Assembly: GCA_963732795.1 (NCBI GenBank)
Contig: CAVTAV010000007.1
Location: forward strand, 18,321 to 82,320
DNA from: an uncultured Alphaproteobacteria bacterium
Lineage (GTDB): Bacteria > Pseudomonadota > Alphaproteobacteria > CAVTAV01
Direction: 5' to 3'
Length of the DNA stretch: 64,000 nt
Shown: piece by piece, positions 15,219 through 63,926 of the stretch
How positions within the stretch are numbered: position 1 is the first letter of the stretch
How the letters are laid out: each line of letters begins with the position of its first letter
The notes under the pieces: model-generated
Seen by the model: the letters and a program-made list of their open reading frames with translations, nothing else
The model's database searches: none
Told to the model about the DNA's origin: nothing
Translations under genes and position numbers: made by a program

Positions 15219-16172
15219 ATGCCAAGAGGTGACGACAAGGAAGCCAAGCTTGGGACGTTCGGGTTGCGCCTGAGGGCCTGGTGGGAAGGCTATAGCCCGG
15301 AGGAGTATCTCGCCTGGCTCGAGGCCAGGCGGGCGAAAGGAGCGACCGTCAAGCATAAGACGGGCGCCGCAACGTCGCCCGTGACGGAGATCGCCTGGAA
15401 ACCTGACCGGATCAAAGTGGCCAATCTGATCTGGGGCGAGGGCTATTGCGGTCCGGGCGGGCCGCAGCATGTCGTGGATTTGTCCAAGCTCCTGGGTCTC
15501 ACGCCGGATATGAGCGTTCTCATCGTCGGCGGCGGGCTCGGCGGCCCGGCGCGGGCGCTCGCCGGCAATTTCGGTTGCTACGTCACGGCCTATGAGGAAT
15601 CGGCCGAGCTCGCGGCCGCCGGCACGGAGCTCTCCGTCGGGGCGGGACTAGGCCGCAAGGCGCCGATCGAGCATTTCGATTTCGAGAATATCGAGCCGTT
15701 CACGCGGAAATTCGATGCCGCGGTGGCGAAGGAGTCGCTGCTGACGATCAAGAACAAGTCCGGCGTTCTGCGTGAAATCTTTGCGTCGTTGAAACCCCAG
15801 CAGCTCGTTCTAATCACCGACTATGTCCTCGAGGATTCGACCAGTGCCGACGATCCTGAGGTCGCCGAGTGGCTGACAGCGGAAAAAACCAAATGTCACT
15901 TGCTACGGAATGAGGAGATGGTGCGGCTCATCGAGCGCGCCGGATTCCTGGTGCGGGTCAAGGAGGACCAGAGCGAGAGCTACCGCTCGTTGATCGCCGA
16001 AAGCTGGTCCGAGTCAGGTCAGATCATTCAGCAGTTGTCCCAGGAGGCCGAGGAGAACCAGAGCCTCATCCAGACGCTGCTCGATGAAGCGACGCGGTGG
16101 GCGCGGCTTTCCCACCTGCTGGAGAGCAACAAGCTCCGCCTGATGCGCTACGTCCTCGAAAAGGGCGCGTAG
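15219..16172 (+). CDS. Class I SAM-dependent methyltransferase
   Basis: 317 aa. SAM-binding motif I VLIVGGGLGGPARALA followed by an acidic residue after beta-2 (YVTAYEES). Confidence 0.7.
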   Translation: MPRGDDKEAKLGTFGLRLRAWWEGYSPEEYLAWLEARRAKGATVKHKTGAATSPVTEIAWKPDRIKVANLIWGEGYCGPGGPQHVVDLSKLLGLTPDMSVLIVGGGLGGPARALAGNFGCYVTAYEESAELAAAGTELSVGAGLGRKAPIEHFDFENIEPFTRKFDAAVAKESLLTIKNKSGVLREIFASLKPQQLVLITDYVLEDSTSADDPEVAEWLTAEKTKCHLLRNEEMVRLIERAGFLVRVKEDQSESYRSLIAESWSESGQIIQQLSQEAEENQSLIQTLLDEATRWARLSHLLESNKLRLMRYVLEKGA

Positions 16173-16188
16173 ATCGAAGCCGAATGTC

Positions 16189-17790: not shown

Positions 17791-18146
17791 CAGCCTCTCC
17801 CGTTGTTGCCTCGTCTCCCCTGACCGAAGCGGCGTCCGGCCCTCATCAGGGAGAACACTAAACGGTTGATGGCCGACTGCCTAGAAAATGTGGCGCGGCG
17901 TCAGCGCCAACGCGGAGGACCACCCCGCGAGCTTGAATAAAATTACCAAATAGAGCACTAAAATTTCACGGCGCACCCGGTTGTGAATAGCGCAGAGTCG
18001 ACCGCGATGCTTTGCCACAATTCCGCCGCGACTTGGGATAAGATTCCCGGCGGATTCGGTCGCTCCGGTGGTTCCGCCACCGGCGGTTCGCAACCCACAC
18101 CGACCATCCGTTCGGTGCGCGTTTCACCACATGACTGGAGACTCTA

Positions 18147-18413
18147 ATGAAGAAGTTGCTCATTCCGGCGCTCTCCGTCGCGGCGCTCATCGGCATCAAT
18201 ACGGCGTTCGCGGCTGACGTTACCGGCGAGATCAAGTCTGTAAGCGTGAAGAAGCACGACGTCCTCCTCAATAACGGTCAGCGTTACTGGTTCGGCAAGG
18301 ACTTCGACCTGTCGAAGACCAAGAAGGGCGAAAAGGTGAAGATCACCTTCGAAGAAAAGAAAATGAAGAAAGGGACGAAGAACGAGGCGAGCGCGATCGC
18401 CCTCGTCTCCTAA
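18147..18413 (+). CDS. Small secreted protein (DUF1344-like)
   Basis: 88 aa with signal peptide MKKLLIPALSVAALIGINTAFA and a Lys-rich mature part. SD-like ctggagac upstream. Confidence 0.65.
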   Translation: MKKLLIPALSVAALIGINTAFAADVTGEIKSVSVKKHDVLLNNGQRYWFGKDFDLSKTKKGEKVKITFEEKKMKKGTKNEASAIALVS

Positions 18414-18467: not shown

Positions 18468-18653
18468 CTATGTCGAAGCCTCTCCCGATACATCACCGAC
18501 GCAAGATGCGTTGACCGAATAGCCTTCCTCCGCTCAAACTGACGCCCGATACAGGGATGATTGCGCCATGCGCGCATGAGAGGGGGTTGAAATGAAACGA
18601 ATTGAATATCGGGACGATGCACATATGCGACGTCGATTGACCGGCGATCGGCA

Positions 18654-20283
18654 TTGTCGCGCATGGCAGGGAGGCGCCGCTTTCCTGGCGAGCGCAACGA
18701 TTGCGGGCTTGTCCGGCCGTCGCGCATCTGGCGGCCGGCGACGCCGTCGCTGACACGGCCTTCGGCAAAATCCGGGGCGCGACGTCGAACGGCATTCATA
18801 TCTTCAAGGGAGTCCGCTACGGCGCGCCCACCGGCGGGGCCAATCGGTTCATGCCGCCAAAGAATCCGGAGCCATGGGCCGGGTATTCGCGACGCGCTGC
18901 ATTACGGCAACAGCGCGCCTCAGACCAATCCGAATGCGAAGGGCGGTGGCGGCGAGTTGTTCGCGCCGGTAGGCGGCGACGAAAAGACCGCCGAAAGCGA
19001 GGACTGCCTGTTCCTCAATGTCTGGACGCCTGGTCTCAATGACGGTGGCAAGCGCCCGGTGATGGTGTGGCTCCACGGCGGCGGCTTTCTGTCGGGGTCC
19101 GGCTCTCGCAAGATCATCGCCGGCGACAACCTGGCGCGCCGGGGCAATGTCGTGGTCGTCACCTTGAACCATCGGCTCAATGCCTTCGGGTTCAGCCATT
19201 TCGGCGATATCGGCGGACCGGAATACGCGATGTCCGGCAATGTCGGAATGTTGGATATCGTCCAGGCGCTGAAATGGGTGCGCGACAATATCGAGCGGTT
19301 CGGCGGCGACCCGTCGCGCGTCATGATTTTCGGCGAGTCCGGTGGTGGCCAGAAGGTTTCGATGCTGATGGGCTGCCCACTCGCCAAGGGCCTGTTCCAC
19401 CGCGCGGCGATCGAAAGCGGCCCCGGGATCAAGATGCTCGATCGGGACAAGGCGACGCATGTCTCCGAGGTCTATTTGAAGGAGCTTGGCCTGACTGCCG
19501 CCCGCCTGCCGGAAATTCAGAAGATGCCGACCGAGAAACTCCTCGCGGCGTTCTTCCCAGCCATGGCTAAAACCGGCGGCATTACTGCGGGCTTCATCGA
19601 CAATTTCTCGCCGGTAATCGATCCGGTGGTCCTGCCGCAGCATCCGTTCTCGCCGAAGGCGGCGCCTTACGCCGCCGACGTGCCGCTCATCATGGGTTGG
19701 AACCGTACGGAGATGACGCTGTTTGCCGATCCGGCCGCGTTCTCGATCGACGAGGCGGAGATGGTCAAGCGCATCACCGCGATCCATGGCGATGCCGCGT
19801 CACGGATTATCAAGACCTATAGAAAGAAATATCCTGACCTGTCCGCGACGGATCTGCAATTTCATCATCTGGTCCGACTATCCGACCATGTTCTTCGAAA
19901 ATCTGATCGCGGAGCGGCGCGCGGCGCAAGACCAGGCGCCGACCTATCTCTATCGCTTCGATTGGCGATCGCCGGTCCAGGGCGGCAAGTACCACACGCC
20001 GCACACGATGGAGATTCCGTTCGTATTCGACAACACCAGGGTCATGACCAGCATGACAGGCGGGACGGCCGAGGCGGCGGTGCTGGCGGCCAAAATCAGC
20101 GACGCCTGGATCGCACTGGCGACGACCGGCGATCCGAATTCGGCGAAGGGCGGGCTCCCCAACTGGAAGGCTTATTCGACGAACGAGCGCTCGACCATGT
20201 TGATCAATACGGAAAGCCGTCTAGCCGCCGACCCCGAAATGGAAGAGCGGGCGCTGTTCGACGAGCTGTATCCGAACATCTAG
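18654..20283 (+). pseudogene. Type-B carboxylesterase (para-nitrobenzyl-esterase-like), at least 2 frame disruptions (near 18885 and 19860; possibly more in the signal region)
   Basis: N-terminus in the frame of ORF 18701 (GKIRGATSNGIHIFKGVRYGAPTGGANRF). Core in the frame of ORF 18654 (EDCLFLNVWTP, VMVWLHGGGF, nucleophile elbow FGESGGG). C-terminus in the frame of ORF 19723 (YLYRFDW...HTMEIPFVFDN...) ending at TAG 20281-20283. A Tat-like MAGRRRF(L) start at 18663 is possible. Confidence 0.8.
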
Positions 20284-20330
20284 CGCCGCCGCAGGAGGGA
20301 TACCTCCGACGGTGGGGGTATTGCCGCGGT

Positions 20331-20360
20331 CATACAAATCATACTAGTATGAAATGTATG
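20331..20360. promoter_or_regulatory. 30-bp AT-rich palindrome overlapping the AbrB-like gene start (candidate operator)
   Basis: CATACAAATCATAC-TA-GTATGAAATGTATG. The arms match as reverse complements at 12 of 14 positions. Built from four CATAC/GTATG pentamers spaced by AAAT. It includes both candidate start codons (20349, 20358). Confidence 0.5.
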
Positions 20361-20615
20361 ACAAAGCGCAAAGGCATGGGGCCGCCGGGCTTCGAGCTCG
20401 AGTTTCACGGCACGACCGTGGTCGGCGAGCGCGGTCAGGCGGTGATCCCGGCCGAAGCCCGCAAGGCGCACGACCTCAAAAAGGGGGACAAGCTCCTGGT
20501 TTTCAGCATGGGCGGCAATATCGTCTTCACCAAGCTCTCCGGCCTGGAGCAGTTCGAGGAGCATTTGAAGAACCGCCTCGCCGCCATCCGCGATCTGATC
20601 GAGAAGAATCGATAA
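20349..20615 (+). CDS. AbrB/MazE/SpoVT-family DNA-binding protein
   Basis: In-frame tail of ORF 18654..20615. MKCMTKRKGMGPPGFELEFHGTTVVGERGQAVIPAEARKAHDLKKGDKLLVFS is a swapped-hairpin (SpoVT/AbrB) motif. Its stop is 1 nt before the ABC ATPase start. Confidence 0.75.
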   Translation: MKCMTKRKGMGPPGFELEFHGTTVVGERGQAVIPAEARKAHDLKKGDKLLVFSMGGNIVFTKLSGLEQFEEHLKNRLAAIRDLIEKNR

Positions 20616-32858: not shown

Positions 32859-32944
32859 GGGTCTTGCGTCCGTCGCGACGGATCGATCGAGGATAGACGG
32901 ATCATGCGGGCCTCCTGGCTCGTTCCCCCTTGGTGGGTTGTTGA

Positions 32945-32993
32945 GGCAGGAGTCATCAGCCGGTCGCGGCGGTTATCGGGGGACTCCATCCCC
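32945..32993 (-). promoter_or_regulatory. Fluoride riboswitch (crcB RNA motif)
   Basis: The minus strand reads GGGGAUGGAGUCCCCCGAUAACCGCCGCGACCGGCUGAUGACUCCUGCC. P1 is GGGG/CCCC around AUGGAGU. P3 is GCCG-CGAC-CGGC. The conserved CUGAUGACUCCU has an ACUCC that pairs with GGAGU to form the pseudoknot. It sits 87 nt upstream of crcB. Confidence 0.85.
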
Positions 32994-33174
32994 ATCGACG
33001 TCGGTCGGATCGAACTTTACGTGGCGGCCTGAGAGCCAGTCAATACAGACGGGCTTGGCTCTCTGCGTCACCCCAGCGCAAGGCTGGGGTCCAGGGCGTC
33101 CGACGTTGCGCTCAACGTCTGACGTGGGGCTGGATGCCAGCCTCCGCTGGCATGACGACGGAGAGAGGTCGCCG

Positions 33175-47520: not shown

Positions 47521-49627
47521 GTGAGGCTCGTGTCCGTCGTAAGCTATTCAAGAGAAGGAAACGTCGCCGTCCTCACGCTCGACAGCCCGCCCGTGAATGC
47601 GCTGAGCCACAAGGTGCGCAAGGCGCTCCTGGAAGGGTTCGAGCGCGCCGCGGAAGACGAGAGCGCCGAGGCGATCGTGCTGATCTGCGCCGGTCAGACC
47701 TTTATCGCCGGCGCCGACATCACCGAGTTTCAGAACGGCATGTTCTTCGCCGAACCGACGCTCTACGACGTGCAGGATGCCATGGAGGCGAGCGCGAAGC
47801 CGATCGTCGCCGCGATCCACGGCACGGCGCTCGGTGGCGGCTTCGAGGTCGCGCTTACCTGCCATTGGCGGGTCGCGGTCGAGGACGCGCGGTTCGGCTT
47901 TCCCGAGGTTAATCTCGGCGTGTTGCCGGGCGCGGCGGGCACTCAGCGCTTCACGCGCTTGGCGGGGCCGAAGCTCGCTTTGGAGTACATCATCAGCGGC
48001 CGCCAATTCGGCGCGCCCAAGGCCCTGGAGTGGGGCGCCGTCGATGCCGTCGTCGACGATCTCGAAGCCGGTGCGATCGGCTTCGCGCGCAAGGTTGTGG
48101 CAGAAAAGCGTCCCTTGCGGCTGGTTCGCAACATGACCGAGAAGGTGACCGGTATCGATCCAAAGGTTTTCGCCGATGCCTATGCCACGGTCGCGACGAC
48201 GCGCCGCGGGCTCGATGCGCCGCCGAAGATCATGGAATGCATCGAGGCGGCCTGCACGCTTGCCGCCCGACAAGGGCTTCGCCGTCGAGACCGACCGGTT
48301 CAACGAACTGCGCGACGGCGGGCAGAACCGCGCCCTCGTGTATCAGTTCTTTGCCGAGCGCGAGGCGCGCAAGATTCCGCAAATGCTCGAAGAGCGTGAA
48401 GCCGATCCCGATCGCCTCCGCCGCGGTGATCGGCGCGGGCACCATGGGCGGCGGCATCGCGATGTGCTTCGCCAACGCCGGCATTCCCGTCGCCCTGGTC
48501 GACGCGAATGCCGATGCCCTGGCGCGCGGCCGCAAGATCATCGAGGCGAACTATGCACGCTCGGTTCAGCGCGGCAGCCGCACGCAAGCCTCGGTCGACA
48601 AGGCCCTTGGCCTGATCGCGCCGGCGCTCGACTTCGAAGCCGTGGGTGACGCCGATATCGTTGTCGAGGCGGTGTTCGAGGATATGGGCGTCAAGAAGGA
48701 CGTGTTCGCCCGGCTCGACGCGGCAGCGAAGCCCGACGCGATCCTAGCCACCAACACCTCGACCCTCGACATCGATGAGATCGCCCGCGCGACCAGCCGG
48801 TCCGAAAAGGTCGTCGGCGCACACTTCTTCAGCCCGGCGAATGTGATGCGCGTGCTGGAGAACGTGCGCGGCAAGGAGACGTCCGACGAGACCATCGCCA
48901 CCGTCATGGCGCTCGGGCGAACGCTCGGCAAGATCGCGGTGCTGGCGGGAAATTGCCATGGCTTCATCGGCAACCGCATGTTCGAATTCTGCATGGACGA
49001 GGCGAATTTTCTTCTCGAGGACGGCGCTACGCCGGACCAGATCGACGGCGCGATGGAGGAGTTCGGCATGGCGATGGGGCCGCTCGCGACCATCGATCTT
49101 GCCGGCGTCGATGTCGTGCAGCTCATCAACAAGGCGCGCGCGCCGCTTCTGCCCAAAGGCGAGCGCGTCTCGCCGATCATCGAGCGGCTGCATTTCCATG
49201 GCCGCCTCGGCCAGAAGACGGCCAAGGGCTACTATGCCTATGACGGCCGCAAGCGCTCGCCGGATCCGGAAGCGATGGGCATCATCGAGCATGTCTCGAA
49301 GGAGCTCCACATCAAACGCCGCAAGATTTCATCGGGCGAGATCGTCGCCCGGCTTCTGCATCCGATGATCAACGAAGGCGCGCGGATTCTCGAAGAGCAT
49401 ATCGCGCTTCGGCCCGGCGATATCGACGTGCTTTTTGTCCACGGCTACGGTTTTCCCGCCTATCGCGGCGGACCGATGTATCTGGGGCCAGTCGACCGGT
49501 CTCGAGCATGTGATCGAGACCGCGCGCGACTGCGCGAAGCGTCACGGCCCACGATGGGCGCCGGCGCCGCTGCTCGAGAACTCTCGTCGCGAAAGGCGAG
49601 CCGCTCATCCCTTCCGAATTGAAATGA
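47521..49627 (+). pseudogene. Bifunctional enoyl-CoA hydratase / 3-hydroxyacyl-CoA dehydrogenase (FadB/FadJ-like), about 4 frame disruptions (near 48262, 48390, 49485, 49575)
   Basis: Crotonase part (FIAGADITEF, AAIHGTALGGGFEVAL) in ORF 47521. Linker DKGFAVETDRFNEL... in ORF 48176. Dehydrogenase part (AAVIGAGTMGGGIA...TNTSTL...HFFSPANVM) in ORF 48030. The tail is in two further frames, ending at TGA 49625-49627. Confidence 0.8.
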
Positions 49628-50211: not shown

Positions 50212-50289
50212 GATCCGTATTGCTGTTCGGCGATCGACGAGGACGCAACAATATCTTGTGGGCAGGATTGACACGTACCCCAAAATATG

Positions 50290-50318
50290 TTGACACGAAT
50301 CGTGCGAACAAGTAATGG
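50290..50318 (+). promoter_or_regulatory. Sigma70-like promoter candidate for the histone-like gene
   Basis: TTGACA (50290-50295), a 17-nt spacer, then TAATGG (50313-50318), about 40 nt upstream of ATG 50359. A second TTGACACG copy lies 22 bp upstream at 50268. Confidence 0.35.
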
Positions 50319-50358
50319 GCAATGTTGGTCAACTAATTCACCGAAGGGGAGTGAAGCC

Positions 50359-50793
50359 ATGTCACCCAGTGCTAGCGTGAAGAAGACGACGAAGAAGACG
50401 ACCGCGAAGAAGACCGCGAAGAAGACCGTGGCCAAGAAGAAGGCTCCGGTCCGCAAGGCGGCTGCCGCGAAGAAGCCTGCTACCCGCAAGGCTCCTGCTC
50501 GGAAGACTGCGGCGAAGAAGGCACCGGTCCGTAAGGCCGCTGCTGCAAAGAAGCCTGCCGCGAAGAAAGCGCCCGCCAAGAAGAAGCCCGCCGTCAGGAA
50601 GGCTGCCGCGAAGAAGCCTGCCGCGAAGAAGGCCCCCGCCAAGAAGACTGTTGCGAAGAAGCCCGCCGCGAAGAAGAAGCCCGCCGTCAGGAAAGCCGCT
50701 GCGAAAAAGCCTGCCGCGAAGAAGGCTCCTGCTCGCAAGACCGCCGCGAAGAAGGCCCCCGCCAAGAAGAAGCCTGCCGCGAAGAAGAAGTAA
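50359..50793 (+). CDS. Lys/Ala/Pro-rich histone-H1-like (AlgP/Hc-like) basic repeat protein
   Basis: Start at ATG 50359 (AAGGGGAG 8 nt upstream). [22 protein letters not shown]... followed by reiterated [12 protein letters not shown] / [12 protein letters not shown] units. The DNA is visibly tandem-repetitive. Confidence 0.75.
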
Positions 50794-51091
50794 GTTCGAC
50801 ATCCGTGTAATCTTGTCCCTCCATTGTCGAGTGCAGACCTTGGAGGGAGGGATGTTTGAGCTAGAGGGGAAGGGAGTGCCGCCCGCGTCGCTTTGACGTC
50901 TCGCGTGTCTCGCCCTAACTGATCCTCGATCTTCTCGAACGGACGATAAGGGCCGGTTCTATGCCGCCACCGGATCGCTCGTCGCGGTGCCCGTTGACAC
51001 GTCCGAAGGCGACGGCCAAGCTATAGCCACAGCGCTGTCGCGTCGGGGAGGCGTGGTCTGTCGCGCCTTCAGTTCGGGGAAAACAACCGCA

Positions 51092-52721
51092 ATGAGTGAG
51101 TTGGGCTTGCTGTCGCGCGAACGTATCGTCGCGAAGCCGGGCTTTAATCGTTGGACGGTACCGCCGGCCGCCGTCGCCATCCATCTGTGCATCGGGATGG
51201 CCTATGGATTCAGCGTCTTCTGGCTGCCGCTGTCGCGCGCGGTCGGGATCGATGCTTCCGTTGCGTGTCCCGACGGATCCTCGCTGCTCCATCGGCTTGT
51301 CGCGACCGACTGTGACTGGTTGGTCAGCGACGTCCAATGGATGTACACTCTCTTTTTCGTTTTTCTTGGAACGGCCGCCGCGATCTGGGGCGGATGGCTG
51401 GAGCGCGCCGGTCCGCGCCGTGCCGGCGTCGTGGCTGCGTTCTGCTGGTGCGGCGGCTTCGTGATCTCGGCGATCGGCGTCGCGGCCCATCAGTTGTGGC
51501 TGATGTGGCTCGGTTCGGGCGTGATCGGCGGCATCGGCATCGGGCTCGGCTATATCTCGCCCGTCTCGACCCTCATCAAATGGTTTCCCGACCGGCGCGG
51601 CATGGCGACGGGTATGGCGATCATGGGCTTCGGGGGCGGCGCGATGATCGGCGCCCCGCTCGCCAACTGGCTGATGACCGTCTTCGCGACCCGCCATTCG
51701 GTCGGCGTCTGGCAGACCTTCCTGGTACTGGGCGCGGTCTATTTCGTGTTCATGCTGGGCGGGGCGTTCGGCTATCGCATTCCGCCGGCCGGGTGGCGGC
51801 CGGAAGGCTGGGAGCCGCCGAAGGACAAGACGCATGCGCTGATCACCAATCGTCATGTGCATCTGAAGGACGCGCATAAGACGCGCCAGTTCTGGCTGAT
51901 CTGGCTGGTGCTGACCTTGAACGTCATTCCGGGCATCGGCGTTCTGGGCATGGCCTCGCCGATGCTGCAGGAGATCTTCGCCGGCTCGCTGATCGGCGCG
52001 CCGCATGTCGGCTTCACCGCACTCGATGCGTCACAGCGCGTGGCGGTCGCGGCGATCGCCGCCGGCTTCACCGGACTGTTGTCGCTGTTCAATATCGGCG
52101 GCCGCTATTTCTGGGCGTCGGTCTCGGACAGGATCGGCCGCAAGATGACCTATTACACGTTCTTCGTGCTCGGCATCGCGCTCTATGCGCTGGCGCCGTG
52201 CCACCGCCCATATGGGCTCGAAGATCCTGTTCGTGCTGTTCTTCTGCGTGATCCTGTCGATGTATGGCGGCGGCTTCGCGACCGTGCCGGCCTATCTCGC
52301 CGATGTGTTCGGCACGCAATTCGTCGGCGCGATCCATGGCCGGCTGCTGACCGCCTGGTCGGTCGCCGGGCTCATCGGCCCGGTGATCGTGAGCTATATC
52401 CGCGAGGGCCAGATCGCGGCCGGCGTGCCGAATAACCTCGTCTATGATTTCACGATGTATATTCTCGCCGGCATGCTGATCCTCGGCTTCCTCTGCAATA
52501 TGGGCATCAAGCCGGTGAAAGAGCACCTCTATATGTCGGACAAGGAAGTCGCGACGCACGAGGCCAAGGCCCATGCGGTCGTCGCCGGCGCGACCAGTTC
52601 CTACGGGATCGGCCGCGGCGGGTTCGACATGAAAGCGTTCCTCGCCTGGTCGGCGATCGGCATTCCCATCGCCTGGGGCGCCTGGGTCACGCTCAAGAAC
52701 GCCTTCGTGCTGTTCCAGTAG
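51092..52721 (+). pseudogene. OFA-family MFS transporter (oxalate/formate antiporter-like), frame-disrupted near 52198
   Basis: Start at ATG 51092 (MSELGLLSRERIVAKPGFNRWTVPPAAVAIHLCIGMAYGFSVFW). WFPDRRGMATGMAIMGFGGG. The C-terminal half (ILFVLFFCVILSMYGGGFATVPAYLADVFG) is in ORF 52185..52721. gccgTgccacc looks like a one-base insertion. Confidence 0.8.
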
Positions 52722-52725: not shown

Positions 52726-53904
52726 TCAGTGTCGCGCGGTCAGCGCGACTTTCTGCGTGCGTCCGTTCGCAATAGCACCGGAGAAACGCTCGGCGATCTC
52801 TGCCGCGTCGATCGGAATGCGCGGCGGCGCCTTTGCCCGCTCGGCGCTGGTGAACACACGGATAAAGGCCGGGCCCGGCTTCCTCAGAAGCTCGCCGTCA
52901 CGCGTCAAAGTCTCCGTCGAATGGGCCTCGGCCGAGGCCCGGTAACCGCAGGCGGCGGCGATCGCGCAAAGATCCGTCCGGGGCGAGAGGCTCATCTGGC
53001 CGCCGGTCGAATTCATGGATGCCGTTGTCGAGCACGATATGGAGCAGGTTCCCCGGCGCGCGGCCCCGACAAAGGCGAGCCCCGACAGCCGCATCAGCAC
53101 CGAGCCGTCGCCGTCGAGAACGATCACCCGGCGGTCGGTCGCCGCCGCAATGCCGAGGCCGAGCGCGGGCGCGTGGCCCATCGAGCCCATCATGTAGAAC
53201 CGCGACGGCGCATCGCCGAGTCTGGAACAGCGCGCGGCTTGCAAGCCCTGTGGGCGCGACGATAAGGGCGTCGTCGGGAATGACATCGAGAATGGCTTGG
53301 AGCGCCGCATCCCGAGGCGGGGACGGGCCGGCCTCGTCGCGAGAGAATTTCTCACGGCGTATCGACGGAGATCCGTTATGGCCGTGACGTCGACGTCGCA
53401 GAACAGTTTCATCGGCACCAGGATGGCCTGGGACGCCCCGCCGGCGGCGACTGTGCGCGCACAAACCTCGGCAAGGCCCGCCGCATTGTCGGCATCCGCG
53501 ATATGGACGGCGACGCCGCAGGCCTTGAGGAACGGCTCGGTTAATCCGCCGACCAGTCGGTGCTGCGGTTCATCATGGACGCCGGGCCGGCCGCGCCAGC
53601 CGATGACCAGCAGAACCGGAATGCGATAAGGCGCGATCAGCGAGGTCAGCGCATTCGAGAGATTGCTGAGCCCCGAATTCTGGCACAGTACCGCCGCCGT
53701 CCTGCCGCCGAGCCGTGCCCCGGCGGCGAAGGCGAGCGCTTCGCCTTCGTTGGGCGCGTTGGCGAAATCGAGCGCGGGGTCGGCGAGCATCGCGTTCATC
53801 AGCCCCGTCATCGACGAGCACGGCACGCCTGTTGCGAGCGCCGCCCCGCCGCGTTTCAGTCCCGCCAGAAAATCGACGGGATCGGCTTGCTTCGCCCCCG
53901 TCAT
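52726..53904 (-). pseudogene. Phosphonopyruvate decarboxylase (ThDP-dependent, Fom2/AepY-like), with internal out-of-frame stretches (about 4 junctions near 53340, 53215, 53060, 53010)
   Basis: N-terminus TGVPCSSMTGLMN...APNEGEALAFAAGARLGG...LCQNSGLSNLSNALTSLIAPYRIPVLLVIGWRGRPGVHDEPQH matches the Ppd signature as I remember it from AepY/Fom2. ThDP-binding part YMMGSMGHAPALGLG...VIVLDGDGSVLM. The segments DALIVAPTGLASRALFQ and NLLHIVLDNG sit in the frame of ORF 52898..53464. Confidence 0.75.
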
Positions 53905-54956
53905 AGAAGTGCCGCCGCGCGCCGCCGAATGTCCGCGACGATCCCGGGCTCCGGCGGCACGACCGATCGGTTCGCGCGATCGGGATTGAGCGCCTTGTCG
54001 TTAGCAAGGATCGTCTCGGGCGTGACGGCCTCGGCGACGAGACGCGCCGCGCCGGTCCTGCGCCACAACTTCGGCAGAACGTCCAGTGAGCCAATGGCGT
54101 CAGCCCGACGACGGTCGATCACAGGCAGCAAACCCGCCGTGCCCAAGGCGAACAGCCCGGCCGCGAGGCCGTGGCGCAATCCGTGCGCGCCCGTCAGCGG
54201 ATAGGAGAGGGCATGGGCGATTCCCGTCCGGGTCTGGCAGATCGCCGCTCCCGCCGCGGCCGCGCCGAGGGAGAGGTCCCGGAGGATGCGATCATCCGAA
54301 ATGTCCGCCGACTGCAGCGTCCGTAATATTGTTTCGAGCGCGAAGGACGCATATCGATCCGACTCCCGGGTCGCGTTGCGGCTCCACAGCGCTTCGAGCG
54401 CATGGGAGATTGCATCCCAGAACGCGGCAATGCGGATCTCCGGCCCGGCCGTGACCAGGAGTGCCGGATCGTAGACTGCATCGCTCGGCTGTAATGCCGG
54501 ACCTTCGATGGAGGATTTGACGCCATCGTCCCAAAGGCTCGCGGTCGGCGTCAGCTCCGATCCCGAGCCGGCCGTGGTGGGCAGGCAGATCAACGGAGCG
54601 TCGTCCGGTTCCCGGTCTGCGCGCCACGATCCGCCGAAAAGATTTGCCTGCCGGACGAGCTTCGCCGCGTCCAGGACCGATCCCGATCCGATGCCGACGA
54701 CCTGGGCCGGCCCCGACCGCCATGCGTGGCGCAGACCGCGAGTGGTCAACAGGCCGGGCGGGACGATGATCGCCTCCGTGGGCGGCGTCAGGCCGTCCAG
54801 CAGGTCTTGGCAACGGCTCAATCCGCCGGCGCTGATGACCAGACTCCATGGACCGGTGACCAGCTCCCGCAACGCCGTCCGCGCGGCTCGGCCGAAATGC
54901 AGGCGGGTCTTGAGATCGCCGGTTGGAAAGAAGGGCGCGCCCGGCTGGATGGTCAC
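53901..54956 (-). CDS. Iron-containing alcohol dehydrogenase (phosphonoacetaldehyde-reductase-like, FomC/PhpC-type by context)
   Basis: Fe-ADH motifs VVGIGSGSVLDAAK, LPTTAGSGSE, FWDAISHALE and GIAHALSYPLTGAHGLRHG. Putative GTG start at 54956, 5 nt after the upstream stop. The stop overlaps the Ppd ATG (ATGA at 53901-53904). Confidence 0.75.
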   Translation of the reverse strand: MTIQPGAPFFPTGDLKTRLHFGRAARTALRELVTGPWSLVISAGGLSRCQDLLDGLTPPTEAIIVPPGLLTTRGLRHAWRSGPAQVVGIGSGSVLDAAKLVRQANLFGGSWRADREPDDAPLICLPTTAGSGSELTPTASLWDDGVKSSIEGPALQPSDAVYDPALLVTAGPEIRIAAFWDAISHALEALWSRNATRESDRYASFALETILRTLQSADISDDRILRDLSLGAAAAGAAICQTRTGIAHALSYPLTGAHGLRHGLAAGLFALGTAGLLPVIDRRRADAIGSLDVLPKLWRRTGAARLVAEAVTPETILANDKALNPDRANRSVVPPEPGIVADIRRRAAALL

Positions 54957-54961
54957 GGGTC

Positions 54962-55592
54962 TTATCCGGCCGTGGCCAGAACATGCCCGGCGACGTCCTC
55001 GGCGATCGTCCCCGCGTCGCGCGTCGCGTCGATCGTGATCCAGCCGTCGCGCGCCGCCCAATCGCGAAGGACCGCCCGGACCGCGGACTGGTGCTTGAGG
55101 AACCGTTCGGGCCTCATCTCCGGGTCGCAGCCGCATTCATAGGGCGTGAGGTCGCCGGCAATCTTGCGTTCGAGCGCCATCTCCGGCGTCGACATCGAAA
55201 TAGAGGGTGAGGTCGGCATTCGGCATCGCCTCGACATAGCCTTCGATCATGGCCCGCGAGGCGCCCATGGCGAGTTCGGCGGCGGCGTGCTTCATCCAAT
55301 AGCCGTCGGAGATGAAGCAGTCATAGGGCTCGGTCATCGAGCGCGTGGTGGTGAGCGCGATGCACCAGAACAGAAAAAGCGCGCGGCCCGGCCCCTTCAT
55401 CTCTGAAATGCAGACCCGGAGCTCCTCCAGATTGGAGTCCATGAAGCGGCATTCGGGATGAATGGTTGGGTCGAGCACGTCCCATTTGTCGATGATCTTG
55501 ACCGAGCGGCCGTCGTCCCCGAGACGTGTGGCGAGCGCTTTGGTCTGGGTCGATTTTCCGGCCCCGTCCAATCCGGCGAAGGCGATCAGCAT
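54962..55592 (-). pseudogene. P-loop kinase of the dTMP-kinase fold (possible FomB-like role), frame-disrupted near 55195
   Basis: MLIAFAGLDGAGKSTQTKALATRLGDDGRSVKII... (Walker A) within ORF 55137..56132. The C-terminal part STPEMALERKIAGDLTPYE...WITIDATRDAGTIAEDV is in ORF 54962..55237. The ATG 55592..55590 overlaps the upstream stop (TGATG). Confidence 0.65.
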
Positions 55593-56402
55593 CAGGCCAC
55601 CGCCGGGATGGGTTGCGCCGCGCCAGGCCGGATCCAGGTGCCGGGCGGCGGCGCGGCGAACAGCGCGGGTTCGAGGAGATCGGGCCGGCCCGAACAGATC
55701 ACGCCCTCGATGCCGTGCCGCGCGAGACGCATCATGACGCTCAACTTGCGGCGCATCCCGCCGGTGATATCGGGCTTCTCCGATGGCGTGATCGCGTCGA
55801 ACGCCGTCGCCCGGTCGGAGGGGCGGAGCGTGGCCGCGATCGCGCCGCCGATGCGCAGCCCCGCGACGTCGGACAGCGCGGCGAACCGCTTGACCCGGAA
55901 CGCCTTGGCGACGAAGAGCGGAAAGAGATCGCTGGTTAAGACGGTCGCATGGCCGCGCTGGAAGATGACGCTCGGCATCAGCACCGGCGTCACACCGGCG
56001 TCGAGGGCGGCGTGAAGCGGGGCGGGGTCGAAGCGAACCCCCGGCCCCGTGTCGCGCAGAATCCGGTCGGCGGTCAGCACGGTCACGGCCGGCCCAGCCC
56101 GCTGCCAGATCCGCTCGAACAGTCCCGCCCATTCATGAAACACCGGCGCGGCGGCCGCGACGCGATCGGCGGCGTCGGATGCAAATTCAGGATGGGCGAG
56201 GGCGTGACCGAAGCTGCCGCCGCCGGCGATCAGGATGACCCGCCGCCGCAAAACGGGCGTCAGCGCCCCGAAGGCCCGCGCGAAGCTCATGATCGCCGCC
56301 TTGTCGGCGGTCATGAGCCGCGCCTTGTCGGTGATGATCGAGCCACCGAACTTACCGATGACGTAGTCGTGATGTCCGTTGTCCGAGTTCTGGCTGTGTC
56401 AT
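55592..56402 (-). pseudogene. Amino-acid-kinase-family kinase (FomA / isopentenyl-phosphate-kinase-like), 1-nt frame disruption just after the start (near 56390)
   Basis: ORF 55592..56314 plus upstream in-frame codons give ...DYVIGKFGGSIITDKARL...VILIAGGGSFGHALA...DITGGMRRKLSVMMRLARHGIEGVICSG. That frame is closed by a TGA. The only ATG (56402..56400, overlapping the upstream stop as TGATG) is one base out of frame (cagCcagaac). Confidence 0.7.
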
Positions 56403-56965
56403 CACGTCCTGTAGTTGATCGCGAGCACCTCGGCGGTCTCTCCGATCGACGAGAAGCTGTGCGGCAGGCCGGGGTCGACATAGACCGAGGCACCCTGCTG
56501 AAGGCGGGCCGTCCGCTGCGCGCCCTCCGGGTCGACCCAGTCCATCCGGACGTCGCCCTGGAGCACGTAGATCAGCTCCTTCGCGTCGTGACCGTCATTG
56601 AGCACAATCCCTTTCTCGGAGTTGCAGTGCAAGGTCAATTTGAGCGCCATCAGCTCGGGCGCGGCATCGGTGGTCGCGAGATGCTGATAAGTGTAATAGG
56701 GGGCGCCGCCGCGCTCGCCGGTGATCCGGAAGCCTTCGCCGGGCTCGGCGATCTTCACGCCGCCGTCGAGATCGGTCGTGCCGGACGGTTCACCGCCGGT
56801 CAACGCCGATGCCGGGACAATCAACTTTGACGCGAGCTTGGCGAGGGCCTCGGCTTCCGGCAGCTCGACGCTGCCGTTCTCGACGCGAAAACCGCGGATG
56901 AGGTCGTCTATCGGCATTTTCCGCGAGATTGCAACTTGTTCCAGGATATTGAGGTCGATCTTCAT
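56402..56965 (-). CDS. HppE-like protein: (S)-2-hydroxypropylphosphonate epoxidase (Fom4/Psf4) family candidate, HTH-like N-domain + cupin
   Basis: 187 aa, intact, GGAG 7 nt upstream. DLDGGVKIA...YYTYQHLATTDAAPELMALKLTLH...NDGHDAKELIYVLQGDVRM...VDPGLPHSF...LAINY. The H-x3-E...H spacing equals the 2-His-1-Glu triad of HppE. The atypical N-domain resembles HppE more than a canonical XRE HTH. Judged from memory of the Fom4/Psf4 sequences. Confidence 0.65.
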   Translation of the reverse strand: MKIDLNILEQVAISRKMPIDDLIRGFRVENGSVELPEAEALAKLASKLIVPASALTGGEPSGTTDLDGGVKIAEPGEGFRITGERGGAPYYTYQHLATTDAAPELMALKLTLHCNSEKGIVLNDGHDAKELIYVLQGDVRMDWVDPEGAQRTARLQQGASVYVDPGLPHSFSSIGETAEVLAINYRT

Positions 56966-57063
56966 GGCTGGCTCCTGTCGGTTTGAAGGGGCATTTCCAT
57001 ATGCGGGAAAAGATTACTATTTATACTCGCAAAAGGAGTATATAGTCGCGCAAAAGTTGTGAC

Positions 57064-57082
57064 AAGCGGCGACATGCCGCTT
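57064..57082 (-). terminator. Hairpin downstream of the nucleotidyltransferase gene (weak intrinsic-terminator candidate)
   Basis: AAGCGGC-gacat-GCCGCTT (7-bp stem) about 30 nt after the stop at 57113. On the minus strand it is followed by GUCACAACUUUUGC, a short and distant U-run. Confidence 0.35.
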
Positions 57083-57112: not shown

Positions 57113-58225
57113 TTAGAGCCGGCCGAACATGTGGGGCCAGAAGTCGCCGATATCGTTTGAGGACCTCGGCGTCTCGCCCGGACGCAGGGTCTGCCACTGA
57201 TCGAGAAGGTATCGGAACGATTCCGGCATCGCCTCGCCGAGGACGCCCGGCATCCGGCGTAGAACATAGGCGGCGCCGCGCCGCAGATTGTGGCCTTCCA
57301 CCAGGCTGGCGAAGGCGTCAATCTCTTCCTCGTCGAGCGCCAGGGCGATCCGGGCGAAATCGGAGAGATACTGGAAGCCCTTCCGATTGGACTGCGCGCC
57401 CTCCCAATAGAGCTTGAACAGTGCGTGAAATGCCATCCACTCGGCCGGCGGCAGCAGGAACGGGGTGCCGTTCCAGTCACGGGGGACCGGCCGGTCCAGG
57501 ATGTCGTCGATGGAAATTCCCGAGCCGATGGCGTGATGAATATCGACGAGGATAGGCGTACGGACCGAATTTCCGTCGACCTCTGAAGCGAAGGGCAAAA
57601 GGTCGCCTGTCCAGCGGAACCCCTCGGCGACCTGCGGATCGACCTGGCCGAGATCCATGATCTTGAGCCAGAAGCCAAGCGCGTAATGGTCCAACTCCTC
57701 TTTGGCCCGGCTTTCGAAATTCGTGGGCGCGAAGGTCTGGGTTTCGGGGTCGTAGGCACCCGGCCAGAACCCGATCGAGCGCAGGATCGTCTTGGCATCG
57801 TCCAGCGCTTCCTCCCGAACGCCGAAATCAAGATCGGCGCCGGTCCGGCAGGTCGGATCGTCATAGCCGACAAATCCGTTCGCCGTGCCTTTCAGCGCGA
57901 CAAGCTCGATGCCCCGGTCGGCGAAGGCGCGCGCAACCTCGGCCGCGACTTGGCGTGACAGACGGCCTTGAAGCGCCGCCGCGGCGGAGATCGCGGTAAG
58001 CCGCTCGCGGGTGTCGGGCTTCAATTGGCTCCCGTATTGCTCCAGGAAAGCCGGAATCGCCACGGACGCGACCTGCCACACCCGCCCGATCCAGCCGGCG
58101 AGGGACTTGGCTTCATCATCCGTTATGGGCCGTTCGAGCGGCCGTCCGGCCAATATTTTCGCGACGTCATATTCCAAACGCGCCGGACCCGATCCGTCGA
58201 CAGAATTGTAATTACGCTCGTTCAC
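57113..58225 (-). CDS. Uncharacterised nucleotidyltransferase family protein (NTP_transf_5 / PF14907-like)
   Basis: 370 aa, intact. ...GIELVALKGTANGFVGYDDPTCRTGADLDFGV...ILVDIHHAIG... is typical of that family as I recall it. Confidence 0.65.
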   Translation of the reverse strand: MNERNYNSVDGSGPARLEYDVAKILAGRPLERPITDDEAKSLAGWIGRVWQVASVAIPAFLEQYGSQLKPDTRERLTAISAAAALQGRLSRQVAAEVARAFADRGIELVALKGTANGFVGYDDPTCRTGADLDFGVREEALDDAKTILRSIGFWPGAYDPETQTFAPTNFESRAKEELDHYALGFWLKIMDLGQVDPQVAEGFRWTGDLLPFASEVDGNSVRTPILVDIHHAIGSGISIDDILDRPVPRDWNGTPFLLPPAEWMAFHALFKLYWEGAQSNRKGFQYLSDFARIALALDEEEIDAFASLVEGHNLRRGAAYVLRRMPGVLGEAMPESFRYLLDQWQTLRPGETPRSSNDIGDFWPHMFGRL

Positions 58226-60413: not shown

Positions 60414-63400
60414 TTACATCCTGAACGTCACGCCCGCCGTAAAGCGCCGTCCCAGGACATCGAACAGCGTCGGATTGTACTGGTTCGAATAGCCCAGGAA
60501 CACGCTGTAGTAAGGCGTGATCGGCGGATCCTGGTCGTTCAGATTTGTTCCGGCGACAAACACTTCGAATGTCTGCCCATTTGCCATCTCGATTTGCTTG
60601 GACAGCCGAAGATCGAGATAGAAGGCCGAGCCGACATGGTTCCTCTCGATGTCCACTCCCTCGACCAAAGCGTTCTCGATCTTGCCGGAACCGATATAGC
60701 GCCCTTGCAGGAAGGCCGTGAAGCCACCATTGCGATAGGTAATGTTACCCGTAGCCTTGAAGTCCGGCAGTGAATAGGCGACGCCATCCGATTCTTGAAT
60801 ACCGGTCTGGCCCGCACGATCGATATTCACGGCACTCCCGATACCTTGGGTGTTCTTACTCAGGAAGCTCGCTAAGAACCGTGCGCCGAGCGTCTCGGCT
60901 TCTCCACCGAAGATCGAAACGTCCCTCGTATAGTCGAGCTCGAGATCGACGCCACTCACAACGGCTTTGGTAATGTTGATGAATTGCGCACCTACCAGAA
61001 TGATGCGATCGGTCGCGGTGTCGCGCGTGATAAACGAGCACAACTCCGTTGCGCCCTGAGCGCAGCCGTCAACGACCGACTGCGGCGAGAGCTGTCCGAT
61101 CTCATCCTTGATCTTGATGTGATACCAATCGACCGACGCGGAAAGCCCCGGAACGAAGTCCGGCCGATACACCGCACCGGCCGTGAACGTGTCGCCGCTT
61201 TCGGGGTTAACGTTCGGATTTCCGCCTGAGAAGATCGTTACGTTTATCGGGCCATCGCCTGGGTAGCGGGGATCGGTAATCGTATTCACGCCGCCCGTCT
61301 TGTCGAATCGTTCGGAAAGGTTCGCGGCGCGCACGTCACGGGAGTACGTGCCACGTAAGCGCAACCCGCCCATGAATTGAACGTCGAGTCCACTTTTATA
61401 AGCCCAGACCGAGCCGCTGCCGGAATACCGCGCCCAGCGACCGGCCAGATTCGCGGCCGCCGATTCGATGATGCCTGTACTTTCCAACAGAGGAATCTGC
61501 GTTTCGGCGAAGAGTTCCTTCACGCTGATCGAACCGATGATGTTCGACACTTTCGAATATTGAATGCCGACCGTGTTTGCACAGTCCGGCGGATTGACAC
61601 CGCGCAGGCCCGGCGCCTCGCCGTCGCAAAGCACGGGGTGGCCGGAGTCATGGTTCGATGACTGATTGGTCGAATCGCGGACGATCTGAAGGACGTGTTC
61701 ACGACGGTAGGATCCGCCGAAGGCCCCCAAAATCGGTCCGGCCCAACCATCGACGATCGTGCCGCTGGCCGATAATTCGGCGACGTGCTGGGTAAGCGTG
61801 GTTCGATTCACCTTGGCCTCTTGGGCGGTATAAGAATCGGTCCGACCGAGCGAGAAGCCCGAACCCGCGAAGTAGAGGGGTGTCGTGATTTGTTCGCCGA
61901 CGTCGTTGCCTACAACATAATCGAGGGCGGCCGCCGAGGCGTTTCCCTGACCGAACAGGTTTATCGGCTCACATCCCGGAAACGCGTTGCCGAACAGCGT
62001 TACGCGGCAAACGGCAGCGCCGGTGGCGGGGTCCACAACCGCGTCGGCGGCGGCGAAGATCCGATCAACCCGAAAGCCGACCTGGTTCCACGTTCTTTTG
62101 TTGTGGCCGTATTGGTAATAGCCATCGACGATCCAGTTATCGAACAATCCGTCGTTATCCACGGTGTATTTGAACCCGCCGGTGATCGAGTCCATCTTGC
62201 TGTCGTCGGTCAAGGTTATGTCCGGGCTGTTGATTTGAGCATGAAGCTTGAACGACTGGATGCCGTTATTGATCATGATCTGGCTGGAGCGAATCCGGGA
62301 GGAATGCGTTGTCCTGGAAGATCGTGACCTGGGTCGGCGTGCCATTCAGCGACCCTCGCGGCGTGTTGTACCGGAAGCTCGAGTCCTCGCCGTGGATGTA
62401 TTGGGTATAGATCTTGAAGTTGGAGCTCACGTCATAGTCCGCGTAGCCGAAGAAGCTTTGACGTGAGAAGTCCGGATATAGGGTTTGCTGGGTCCCGCCA
62501 CCCAAGTCGTCGGCGCTGCCGCCAACACTGCGCGAAGGTGGAACGCCAATGGGGGTGCTGGTTGAAGGGCTTCCCGGTTGAAGAGGCGAGTAGCTGCCGT
62601 CTGGATTGAATTGAAGGCCGTTGATTGGCGTGCCGGGCGCGGAGATCAGTCCGCCGAAGGTTGCGTTGTTGGAAACGACGTGCGGCCGAAGGAGCAACAT
62701 TCCGTTCGAGTCCGGTACAGTGCCCCAGGCCTGATACCAATCCCGGCCGTTGTAGTTGTGGACGCCGTCCTGATGGAAGCGTTCTGCCGAAAGCTGAATA
62801 TGTGCGCGCTCCCCGATGTCGGTGCCAAACGCCGCGGACAGCTTGTAATTTGTGCCATCTCCGCGCGACGTGACGCCGCCCTGAGCGCTGACTTCCATGC
62901 CGGTGTAGTCGGTGTTTAAGATGAAGTTGACGACGCCGGCTACGGCATCCGTGCCATAGGCCGCCGAAGCGCCGCCGGTCACGGTTTCCACCCTGGAAAT
63001 CATAGCTTCGGGGATGACATTGACGTCCACGCCGCCGAAGACTGTCGACGACACGATCCGGCGTCCGTCGAGCAATGTCAGCGTGCGGTTGATTCCGAGG
63101 CCGCGCAGATCGAGGTTTCCGTATCCGCCTCGATTGAACCAGCTGGCGGTCGAATTCGGAGTCTGGCTTTGATAGAATTCCGGCAGCTGGGTGAGGCCTG
63201 AGACCACCGTGTCGGGCGCCATCGCCTTGAGCTGATCTGCCGGGACCGACGTTACAGGAACCGGACTTTCCATGCCGGGTTGCTGGATGCGCGACCCAGT
63301 GATCGTGATCACGTTGACAGGCTCATTGCTGGCGGTCTGATCCTCGGCCGCACTTGCCGCGGCCATGCCGACCGCCATCGCGGCAACGCAGGCGCTGCTG

Positions 63401-63474
63401 AGCATCAAGCTCCGAATGACAGTTTGCCGGCTCGTTCGCCGGTCTACGGTCGAGGCTCGAAACGTATTTTCCAT
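60414..63474 (-). pseudogene. TonB-dependent receptor, frame-disrupted near 62300
   Basis: N-terminal ORF 62266..63597, with the start set at ATG 63474 (MENTFRAS...signal...AAEDQ). Plug motifs ITITGSRIQQP, LDLRGLGINRTLTLLDGRR, VETVTGGASAAYGTDAVAGVVNF. Barrel ORF 60414..62345 ends ...GRRFTAGVTFRM, a typical C-terminal aromatic-x strand. Confidence 0.85.
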
Positions 63475-63926
63475 GGATGTTCCCCCAAAGAGAAGAGTGT
63501 CAATTTGGCTGGATTCTATCTGCGCGGAAGAAGGGCCAGCCCTTGCCTCTCCGGCGACGCGGCAGTCCCGACCCGCTGTTCGTGCATCGGCCGGCATCCC
63601 TCCGCATCGCTGCTCCGCGTTCTTCTGGTCGTCGAAGAACCATGGCGGCGTGAATCAACACAGACCTTTGGCCGCAACGCGCCGAAAAGCGCCCTGCGGC
63701 GGTAAACGCCATTACCGTCAAAGTCCTCCGGAGATATCCATCCCGATTGATCCGCGGTACGTCCAGCCCACGAGATACGGAACGAACGCCTCCAGCCCAA
63801 CAGACGAATTTGATCTGGAAATGCGAACTATTATTCAATTTTGGTCCGAAGCCGCCCCCGCCGATTCGGGCCGTCGCGGGCCTTCGGTCGCGGCTCTAGG
63901 TCGCCGTCTTCAGTCCGAAAATCCGC

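Follow-up and report, generated by a model that had tools for sequence, protein, structure and literature searches.

A 64,000-nucleotide stretch of contig CAVTAV010000007.1 from an uncultured Alphaproteobacteria bacterium (assembly GCA_963732795.1; positions below are those of this stretch, hereafter the window) carries an operon of five minus-strand genes, g1 to g5, related to the genes for biosynthesis of the phosphonate antibiotic fosfomycin. To our knowledge, only two fosfomycin cluster architectures have been described, those of the Streptomyces (fom) and the Pseudomonas (psf) types. The window operon is a third architecture, in which Streptomyces-type early enzymes are combined with a Psf4-type epoxidase in an uncultured soil alphaproteobacterium without local carbon–phosphorus (C–P) bond formation or methylation, and no description of it was found in the literature. 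We give about even chances to the reading that the operon is a functional late-half module of fosfomycin-type phosphonate biosynthesis, which would receive phosphonopyruvate from a phosphoenolpyruvate (PEP) mutase encoded elsewhere in the genome and whose product would be conjugated.

Organization of the operon

The five genes and the elements around them are as follows.

g1, 56402..56965, minus strand: Psf4-type HppE homologue of 187 aa, predicted non-haem-iron cupin epoxidase
g2, 55592..56402, minus strand: predicted FomA-like phosphonate kinase of the amino-acid-kinase (AAK) family
g3, 54962..55592, minus strand: P-loop kinase of the dTMP-kinase fold, in the FomB position
g4, 53901..54956, minus strand: iron-dependent alcohol dehydrogenase (Fe-ADH), FomC/PhpC-like, presumed phosphonoacetaldehyde reductase; frame intact, GTG start
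g5, 52726..53904, minus strand: predicted phosphonopyruvate decarboxylase, Fom2-like
Promoter, 57037-57065, minus strand: TTGTCA-17-TATACT, sigma-70-like, 10/12 promoter matches
Palindrome, 57023-57041, minus strand: perfect ATACTC-N7-GAGTAT, overlapping the -10 element of the operon
Nucleotidyltransferase, 57113..58225, minus strand: PF14907 (NTP_transf_5), directly upstream of the operon in a separate transcription unit; proposed conjugating enzyme
MFS transporter, 50987..52721, plus strand: MFS_1, convergent with the operon, frameshift at 52199; a conserved neighbour whose link to the operon is unproven

Three-frame translation and the junction sequences show that g1 to g5 adjoin or overlap end to end from 56965 to 52726. 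The g1/g2 and g2/g3 junctions are both TGATG (56404-56400 and 55594-55590), g3 and g4 are separated by 5 nt (GACCC), and g4 and g5 overlap in ATGA at 53904-53901. An earlier note on this DNA, made from the sequence alone, had described this layout, and all of its coordinates and junction sequences were reproduced. Its proposal of a single operon with its own promoter is likewise upheld by the abutting genes, by the AT-rich stretch of 147 bp upstream of g1 (44-49% GC vs 67% for the operon) and by the sigma-70-like site. No second perfect match to the palindrome occurs in the window. Across the diverged loci of the lineage described below, there is no variation in its ATAC...GTAT core, in the -10 element or in the ribosome-binding site ACAGGAGCCAG. 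The palindrome is likely the operator of the operon.

The HppE homologue

The g1 product belongs to Cupin_2 in Pfam. It aligns over residues 8-185 with residues 13-189 of Psf4, the HppE of Pseudomonas syringae (PDB 5u55; E 8.7e-33), and matches the Streptomyces HppE at E 3e-18, with MPnS (3.5e-12) and HEPD (5.5e-7) as distant matches. The iron triad H126, E130 and H169 is invariant in alignments of 17 and 13 sequences that include Psf4 and the Streptomyces HppE. R85, Y90, Y91, N123 and F171 are also invariant, and K16 and Y93 are nearly so, Y93 being replaced by F in some members of the lineage. These residues presumably correspond to K23, R97, Y102, Y103, Y105, N135, H138, E142, H180 and F182 of the S. 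wedmorensis enzyme. No lineage-specific active-site substitution hinting at a smaller substrate was found in the g1 alignment, and g1 is 41-49% identical to HppEs located in full fosfomycin clusters.

Because the alignment with Psf4 is full-length and all HppE catalytic residues are kept, the predicted g1 product is a true homologue of HppE, of the Psf4 type, and not a cupin regulator of the XRE/PuuR kind. The HppE-like assignment made earlier thus stands, with a complete 2-His-1-Glu triad and conserved substrate-binding residues. The N-terminal half had also been described as helix-turn-helix (HTH)-like, which is not the case: it aligns with the N-domain of Psf4, not with the helical HTH-like domain of the Streptomyces HppE.

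HppE is rare. Among 1.84 billion cluster representatives, there are 85 matches at E<=1e-3, many of them of HEPD or MPnS size, and 10 at E<=1e-30; the HppEs of the alphaproteobacterial lineage collapse into one representative. None of 72,556 plasmids matched the operon by megablast or the HppE by tblastn, and a plasmid origin of the operon was rejected on this ground.

Kinases, dehydrogenase and decarboxylase

Homologous loci are designated below by L numbers. The g2 product (AA_kinase, E 1e-18) has FomA as its best match in the PDB (3d40, 5.4e-19), ahead of isopentenyl-phosphate kinases (8.5e-12), so that the amino-acid-kinase assignment holds and, among solved structures, FomA is the nearer. 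It obtains 70 bits from the FomA equivalog model NF000338 (cut-off 550) and the same from the model of archaeal isopentenyl-phosphate kinases; the predicted kinase is FomA-like, below the level of a FomA equivalog. The g3 product matches Thymidylate_kin at the P-loop end only and has the dTMP-kinase-fold structure 2plr as its best match in the PDB, in agreement with the earlier description of a P-loop kinase of this fold in the FomB position. No FomB reference sequence or model matched it. The kinase that occupies this position in L023, a Streptomyces-type metagenomic cluster, shares 51-57% identity with it, and those of L004, L011, L013 and L028 share 39-47%; a kinase of this family comes after the AAK kinase in six cluster types.

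The g4 product (Fe-ADH and ADH_Fe_C) had been called FomC-like. TIGR03405 (Phn_Fe-ADH) is indeed its best NCBIfam model, but the score of 132-133 bits is far under the cut-off of 423.7. Its metal-ligand columns D181, H185, H248 and H262 are invariant, and the gene is paired and overlaps with the decarboxylase gene, as in L007 and L023. The g5 product (TPP_enzyme_N and TPP_enzyme_C) reaches the cut-off of the phosphonopyruvate decarboxylase equivalog TIGR03297 (312.5 bits): the repaired window protein scores 312.5 bits, and the intact orthologues in L002 and L005 score 321.8 and 321.7 bits, respectively. The sulfopyruvate decarboxylase models remain below their cut-offs (beta, 146-151 bits, cut-off 221.5; alpha, 72-84 bits, cut-off 148), and the best PDB match is 9iz3, a putative phosphonopyruvate decarboxylase. 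As had been proposed, the predicted g5 product is a phosphonopyruvate decarboxylase; a sulfopyruvate decarboxylase was rejected because both sulfopyruvate models fall short.

These scores bear on the reading that the operon is not a phosphonate system at all, with g1 as an XRE/PuuR cupin regulator and g5 and g4 as a sulfopyruvate decarboxylase and a sulfoacetaldehyde reductase that would yield isethionate. Cupin_2 is a generic domain, and there are secondary matches to the sulfopyruvate decarboxylase models (146-150 and 72-84 bits) and to SarD (53-62 bits). However, g1 keeps every HppE catalytic residue over a full-length Psf4 alignment, g5 passes the phosphonopyruvate model and fails both others, and the closest relatives of all five genes adjoin a PEP mutase gene, which leaves this reading barely credible.

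Conservation and integrity of the operon

Relatives were found by an alignment-based scan, and flanks of ±10 kb were examined in L001, L002, L003, L005 and L009. About a dozen loci, all from a single uncultured lineage of Alphaproteobacteria, show the arrangement of a PF14907 nucleotidyltransferase gene, the five operon genes and a convergent MFS gene, namely these five (L009 being uncultured Alphaproteobacteria bacterium MFD05684.bin.1.14) and the metagenome fragments L017-L022. HppE identity within the lineage set is 70-99%. The ratio of nonsynonymous to synonymous substitution rates (dN/dS) is 0.18-0.32 for all five genes at dS of 0.65-1.7. This purifying selection across a diverged lineage indicates that the operon is maintained and is not a decaying remnant, and it contradicts the decaying or resistance-only remnant that the earlier note had listed among its explanations.

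Three of the five genes, g2, g3 and g5, carry apparent frame disruptions in the window, as had been noted before, and these were located against L002 (GCA_964493815.1), whose DNA is 98.5-98.8% identical over 15 kb. The window alone has one extra base in g2 (56388/9), one in g3 (55189) and four in g5 (53354, 53343, 53223 and 53010/11), and g5 is one base short at 53063. The L002 orthologues are intact (g2, 269 aa; g3, 209 aa; g5, 392 aa), and the apparent gap in its Fe-ADH gene is a run of N. Similar indels occur in neighbouring genes, once in the MFS gene (52199) and six times in a FadB-like gene (47.9-49.6 kb), and a UPF0210-type gene at 13.0-14.6 kb is split as well. Split unrelated genes are found window-wide, for example at 13035-14615, 16189-17702, 18606-20615, 47913-49622 and 60414-63654, and include UPF0210-type, amino-acid permease, carboxylesterase, FadB-like and TonB-receptor genes, which fits an error-prone long-read assembly. 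When indels are removed, the ratio of nonsynonymous to synonymous changes (pN/pS) between the window and L002 is 0.14-0.20 in the seemingly broken genes, similar to that of their neighbours. Because the frameshifts are absent from L002 and unrelated neighbouring genes are hit too, they are very probably assembly errors; a small residual chance is left for a very recent inactivation in this one strain.

A pseudogene remnant of a fosfomycin cluster, in which the frameshifts are real, would account for seven single-base indels in three of the five genes and for the absence of early pathway genes. However, the genes are intact in the 98.6%-identical L002 and in more distant relatives, indels and split frames of the same kind affect the FadB-like, MFS, UPF0210-type and other genes, and both dN/dS across the lineage and pN/pS against L002 are low. 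The contig_N-style names of related contigs are also taken to suggest long-read assemblies. A remnant is thus highly improbable, and it was rejected as an account of the operon on the strength of the intact relatives and purifying selection.

In the distant relatives, an open reading frame (ORF) of 126-129 aa follows the decarboxylase gene (L001 14353-14733, L003 14197-14580, L005 5769-6158, L009 ~14416-14730). It has weak lipoprotein-signal, OmpH- and spectrin-repeat-type Pfam matches, all sub-cut-off, and is absent from the window and L002, where the gap between the decarboxylase and MFS genes is 4 nt.

Ancestry

In L023, counterparts of g1 to g5, ordered as in the window, come directly after genes for a B12-radical-SAM protein (Fom3-like) and an HD-cytidylyltransferase-PEP mutase (Fom1-like). 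The HppE (46-49% identity), the AAK kinase (38-40%, compared with 24-29% to others) and the P-loop kinase of the lineage are closest to those of L023. The Fe-ADH is also nearer L023 (41-44%) than L007 (37%), and the decarboxylase is about equally close to both (L023 41-46%, L007 46%); the decarboxylases of L007 and L023 are each paired with a PEP mutase. Because of this gene order and these closest identities, the window operon is best described as the rear portion of a Streptomyces-type cluster whose fom3 and fom1 were either lost or never acquired.

Outside the lineage, each HppE locus with flanks long enough lies beside a full route to 2-hydroxypropylphosphonate. L023 is a Streptomyces-type cluster, and psf-type clusters, which contain PEP mutase (PepM), Psf2, PsfC-like and/or Psf3 genes, are found in L004, L013/L014, L028, L010 (Pseudomonas fluorescens), L011 (Salinibacillus kushneri) and L012 (Xenorhabdus). 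Two psf-type clusters end in a second, diverged HppE paralogue of 27-32% identity (L012 12841-13407, Xenorhabdus sp. TCT-1; L028 13966-14586, a metagenome contig). The complete cluster of L023 occupies positions 6431-18296 of a metagenome contig with 56.5% GC. Its Fom1-like gene carries an extra N-terminal PhnZ-like HD domain, and the five shared genes are followed by genes for a cytochrome P450, a short-chain dehydrogenase/reductase, a 618-aa nucleotidyltransferase-like protein and a MacB-type permease.

Early steps of the pathway

The earlier note had reported no PEP mutase, Fom3, Psf2, PsfC or Psf3 in the window, and tblastn and motif scans agree. No tblastn match (E<=1e-3) to PEP mutase, Psf2, PsfC, Psf3, Fom3-like or Fom1-like (cytidylyltransferase plus PEP mutase) proteins was found in the 64 kb of the window or in the flanks of the five relatives, while the positive controls L004 and L023 gave the expected matches. 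The PepM motif EDKx5NS is absent from the window and from the same flanks, the radical-SAM motif CxxxCxxC is absent from window ORFs of >=150 aa, and a Pfam search of the other ambiguous window ORFs gave nothing related to phosphonates.

A search for the Fom3-like family returned 164 matches, down to 26% identity, and none of them lies on a contig matching those of the relatives in length (2,416,758, 505,726, 305,763, 138,091, 69,455 and 32,089 bp); this negative is weak, as it covers those contigs only and assumes that the gene was called despite long-read errors. It counts as modest evidence against a Fom3 elsewhere in the genomes of the lineage. Fom3-like B12 radical-SAM proteins 57-61% identical to that of L023 occur in Neorhizobium, Telmatospirillum and Vitreimonas (Alphaproteobacteria), Micromonospora and Streptomyces.

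The nucleotidyltransferase and its association with the kinases

The nucleotidyltransferase upstream of the operon matches PF14907 at E 8e-24 and has the motif KGT...ADLDF...DIHH. Each locus of the lineage with enough upstream sequence (L001, L002, L003, L005, L009 and L017-L020) has a PF14907 gene ahead of the operon, with dN/dS of 0.21-0.37. FomA and FomB have classically been regarded as resistance kinases (PMC9088020). In fosfazinomycin synthesis, two kinases turn the phosphonate into a diphosphate, which the nucleotidyltransferase FzmU ligates to a nucleophile, and the same role has been proposed for FomA and FomB, acting with the product of 'FomU', a gene beside the Streptomyces fosfomycin clusters that had been overlooked (2026 bioRxiv preprint, PMC13622209).

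Among the HppE clusters, PF14907 scores above the Pfam cut-off beside two kinases in the alphaproteobacterial lineage, in Salinibacillus L011 (E 4e-11) and in L013/L014, where the order is nucleotidyltransferase, orf196, HppE, AAK kinase and P-loop kinase. Weak nucleotidyltransferase signals are seen in L004 (NTP_transf_2, E 0.002), in the 618-aa protein of L023 (a GS...DFD motif; MTPAP-like, E 7e-4) and in L028 (motif only; a five-sequence custom hidden Markov model ranks the ORF first of 314 at E 0.09). L010 and L012 have neither the kinases nor a nucleotidyltransferase. Thus, all well-sampled HppE clusters with both kinases have a nucleotidyltransferase-like gene (~6 independent lineages) and those without kinases have none, in a small sample that includes only two of the latter.

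Because it is conserved with the operon and its counterparts accompany the two kinases in other HppE clusters, the nucleotidyltransferase, which the earlier note had called an orphan, probably belongs to the system. When nucleotidyltransferases from different lineages were compared in pairs by BLAST, none matched, a PDB sequence search gave no solved homologue of the window protein, and its single-sequence AlphaFold model is unusable (pLDDT 37.7).

The psf-type HppE cluster of L013 (2886-9397; identical to L014) lies directly downstream of genes resembling those for ribosomally synthesized peptides with post-translational modifications (RiPPs). These encode a 45-aa ORF ending in ...DFVLVSGG|VSSHEPIMDQL, which has the look of a double-glycine leader, a protein of the HlyD type, an exporter of the Peptidase_C39-ABC type and a PF14907 nucleotidyltransferase of 435 aa. 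This gene content suggests that L013/L014 may make a conjugate of a ribosomal peptide with fosfomycin.

Proposed pathway and alternatives

The scheme that we infer builds on the observed gene identities, conservation, selection, ancestry and co-occurrence, and every catalytic step, the source of phosphonopyruvate and the conjugation are conditional in it. Because there is no local PEP mutase, another locus of the genome would have to encode the PEP mutase that supplies phosphonopyruvate. The g5 product, given its equivalog-level family score, would convert phosphonopyruvate to phosphonoacetaldehyde, which the g4 product, as suggested by its family and its pairing with g5, would reduce to 2-hydroxyethylphosphonate. 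The g1 product, with its full set of catalytic residues and its identity to cluster HppEs, would turn a 2-hydroxyalkylphosphonate into an epoxide. The g2 and g3 products may then phosphorylate the phosphonate to the mono- and the diphosphate (a role suggested by homology in the case of g2 and by gene position in that of g3), and the PF14907 nucleotidyltransferase, by analogy with FzmF/FzmK/FzmU and from its co-occurrence with the kinases, may transfer the activated phosphonate to an acceptor. The epoxide would be either fosfomycin, if methylation genes are present elsewhere, or its unmethylated analogue. In one specific form of the scheme, which we regard as doubtful, the HppE homologue would in the absence of Fom3 epoxidize 2-hydroxyethylphosphonate to 1,2-epoxyethylphosphonate ('desmethyl-fosfomycin'), the kinases would make a triphosphate-like diphosphate of it, and the PF14907 enzyme would ligate this to an acceptor, the warheads being made as conjugates and not as free acids.

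Several points weigh against a late-half module with a conjugated product. No PEP mutase was found in the window or within ±10 kb of the operon in five relatives, and one elsewhere has to be assumed. There is no visible route to 2-hydroxypropylphosphonate, the known HppE substrate, in view of the lack of Fom3 on the contigs of the relatives and of Psf2, PsfC and Psf3 near the operon, and no report of an HppE acting on 2-hydroxyethylphosphonate was found in the literature. All loci of this architecture belong to one lineage with conserved synteny, in which the adjacency of the nucleotidyltransferase and the operon amounts to a single observation. The nucleotidyltransferase gene has its own promoter region, and this upstream region lacks the operon palindrome. 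Since FzmF is an ATP-grasp enzyme, the kinases are analogues and not homologues.

A split cluster is a possible, if somewhat unlikely, alternative. Here, genes of the fom1, fom3 and fomD types (or of the psf type) would lie at another locus, the operon would finish fosfomycin, the kinases would serve only self-resistance, and the nucleotidyltransferase would be a bystander. The active site and hydrophobic pocket of the HppE cannot be distinguished from their equivalents in HppEs of 2-hydroxypropylphosphonate-producing clusters, the sister cluster L023 does have fom3 and fom1, and resistance is the classical role of the two kinases. However, no Fom3-like protein is recorded on any contig matching those of the relatives in length, including the one of 2.4 Mb, in a list that extends to 26% identity, nothing of the kind lies within 52 kb on one side and 10 kb on the other, and the association of the nucleotidyltransferase with the kinases in unrelated hosts argues against a bystander.

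The absence of PepM from all lineage loci examined locally also agrees with scavenging or detoxification, in which a lineage without PEP mutase would use the operon to convert imported phosphonates and to inactivate fosfomycin-like epoxides by phosphorylation. Its possible inputs are phosphonopyruvate formed from phosphonoalanine by transamination and environmental 2-hydroxyalkylphosphonates. A transporter gene always adjoins the operon, and the conserved operator-like palindrome suggests inducible control. However, epoxide-forming enzymes and decarboxylases dedicated to phosphonopyruvate serve biosynthesis in other systems, the transporter, which is better conserved than the operon, resembles a lactate carrier, and no phosphonate-catabolic genes of the PhnX, PhnW, PalA or C–P lyase types were seen among the annotated neighbours. 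Scavenging or detoxification is distinctly unlikely.

Other features of the window

The convergent transporter had been described as an OFA-type MFS protein. Its convergence on the 3' end of the operon is confirmed, but NF049980, the SfMCT L-lactate transporter model (cut-off 320), gives the intact L002 orthologue 305 bits and the OFA family gives it 150 bits; the protein looks like an SfMCT-type lactate/monocarboxylate transporter by these scores. The gene is 83-90% conserved with dN/dS of ~0.1.

A gene at 50287-50793 (plus strand) encodes a histone-H1-like protein made nearly entirely of AKKA/PAKK repeats, which is syntenic in the relatives with lengths of 86-172 aa. A fluoride riboswitch (RF01734; 58 bits, E 1.6e-13) is located at 32940-33002 on the minus strand, ~265 nt upstream of a minus-strand ORF (32675-32112) that we take from its translation to be DUF190-like. 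Positions 1-9200 have a GC content of 54-58%, compared with 60-68% elsewhere in the window, and the translations there look exopolysaccharide-like (a tyrosine-kinase/Wzz-like pair, a GMC oxidoreductase, a beta-helix protein and a Wzx-like flippase). This region may be a horizontally acquired island.

Comparison with known systems

If the pathway is completed elsewhere in the genome, the known range of fosfomycin producers is wider; if it is not, either phosphonate scavenging or an epoxyphosphonate without the methyl group is suggested. The kinases and the nucleotidyltransferase travel together in Alphaproteobacteria, a Bacillota genome and several metagenomic lineages. This co-occurrence is independent genomic support for the 2026 proposal that the long-unexplained second phosphorylation by FomB prepares the antibiotic for conjugation, and the window offers a compact six-gene system in which the idea could be tested.

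Like the Streptomyces fosfomycin cluster (fom1-4, fomA-D), the window has counterparts of Fom2, FomC, Fom4 and FomA and a second kinase in the FomB position. It differs in having no Fom1 or Fom3 nearby and in an HppE nearer to Psf4 than to the Streptomyces enzyme. The metagenomic and uncharacterised L023 shares all five genes in the same order, but the window has the PF14907 nucleotidyltransferase where L023 has fom1.

Compared with the psf cluster of Pseudomonas syringae (Psf1-4, PsfC, FosC), the window shares the HppE type with the same N-domain, and the HppE-AAK kinase-P-loop kinase block is common to the window and the psf-type clusters L004, L011, L013 and L028. However, Psf1 (the PEP mutase), Psf2, PsfC and Psf3 are missing, a decarboxylase and an Fe-ADH are present instead, and the AAK kinase is only 26-29% identical to those of the psf type.

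HEPD and MPnS share the cupin 2-His-1-carboxylate fold with g1 and act on 2-hydroxyethylphosphonate, the product expected of g5 and g4. In contrast to the 187-aa g1 product, a far better match to HppE, these enzymes have ~450 aa and are matched in two separate stretches.

FzmF/FzmK/FzmU differ from the window genes in that FzmF is of the ATP-grasp type and the kinases are non-homologous, and no RRE, AS-like enzyme or precursor peptide was seen near the window operon. The window nevertheless resembles both this system and the proposed FomA/FomB/FomU (PMC13622209) in having two kinases and an adjoining nucleotidyltransferase in a phosphonate cluster, an arrangement whose logic in FzmF/FzmK/FzmU is the conversion of a phosphonate to a diphosphate followed by an NMPylation-like transfer to a nucleophile.

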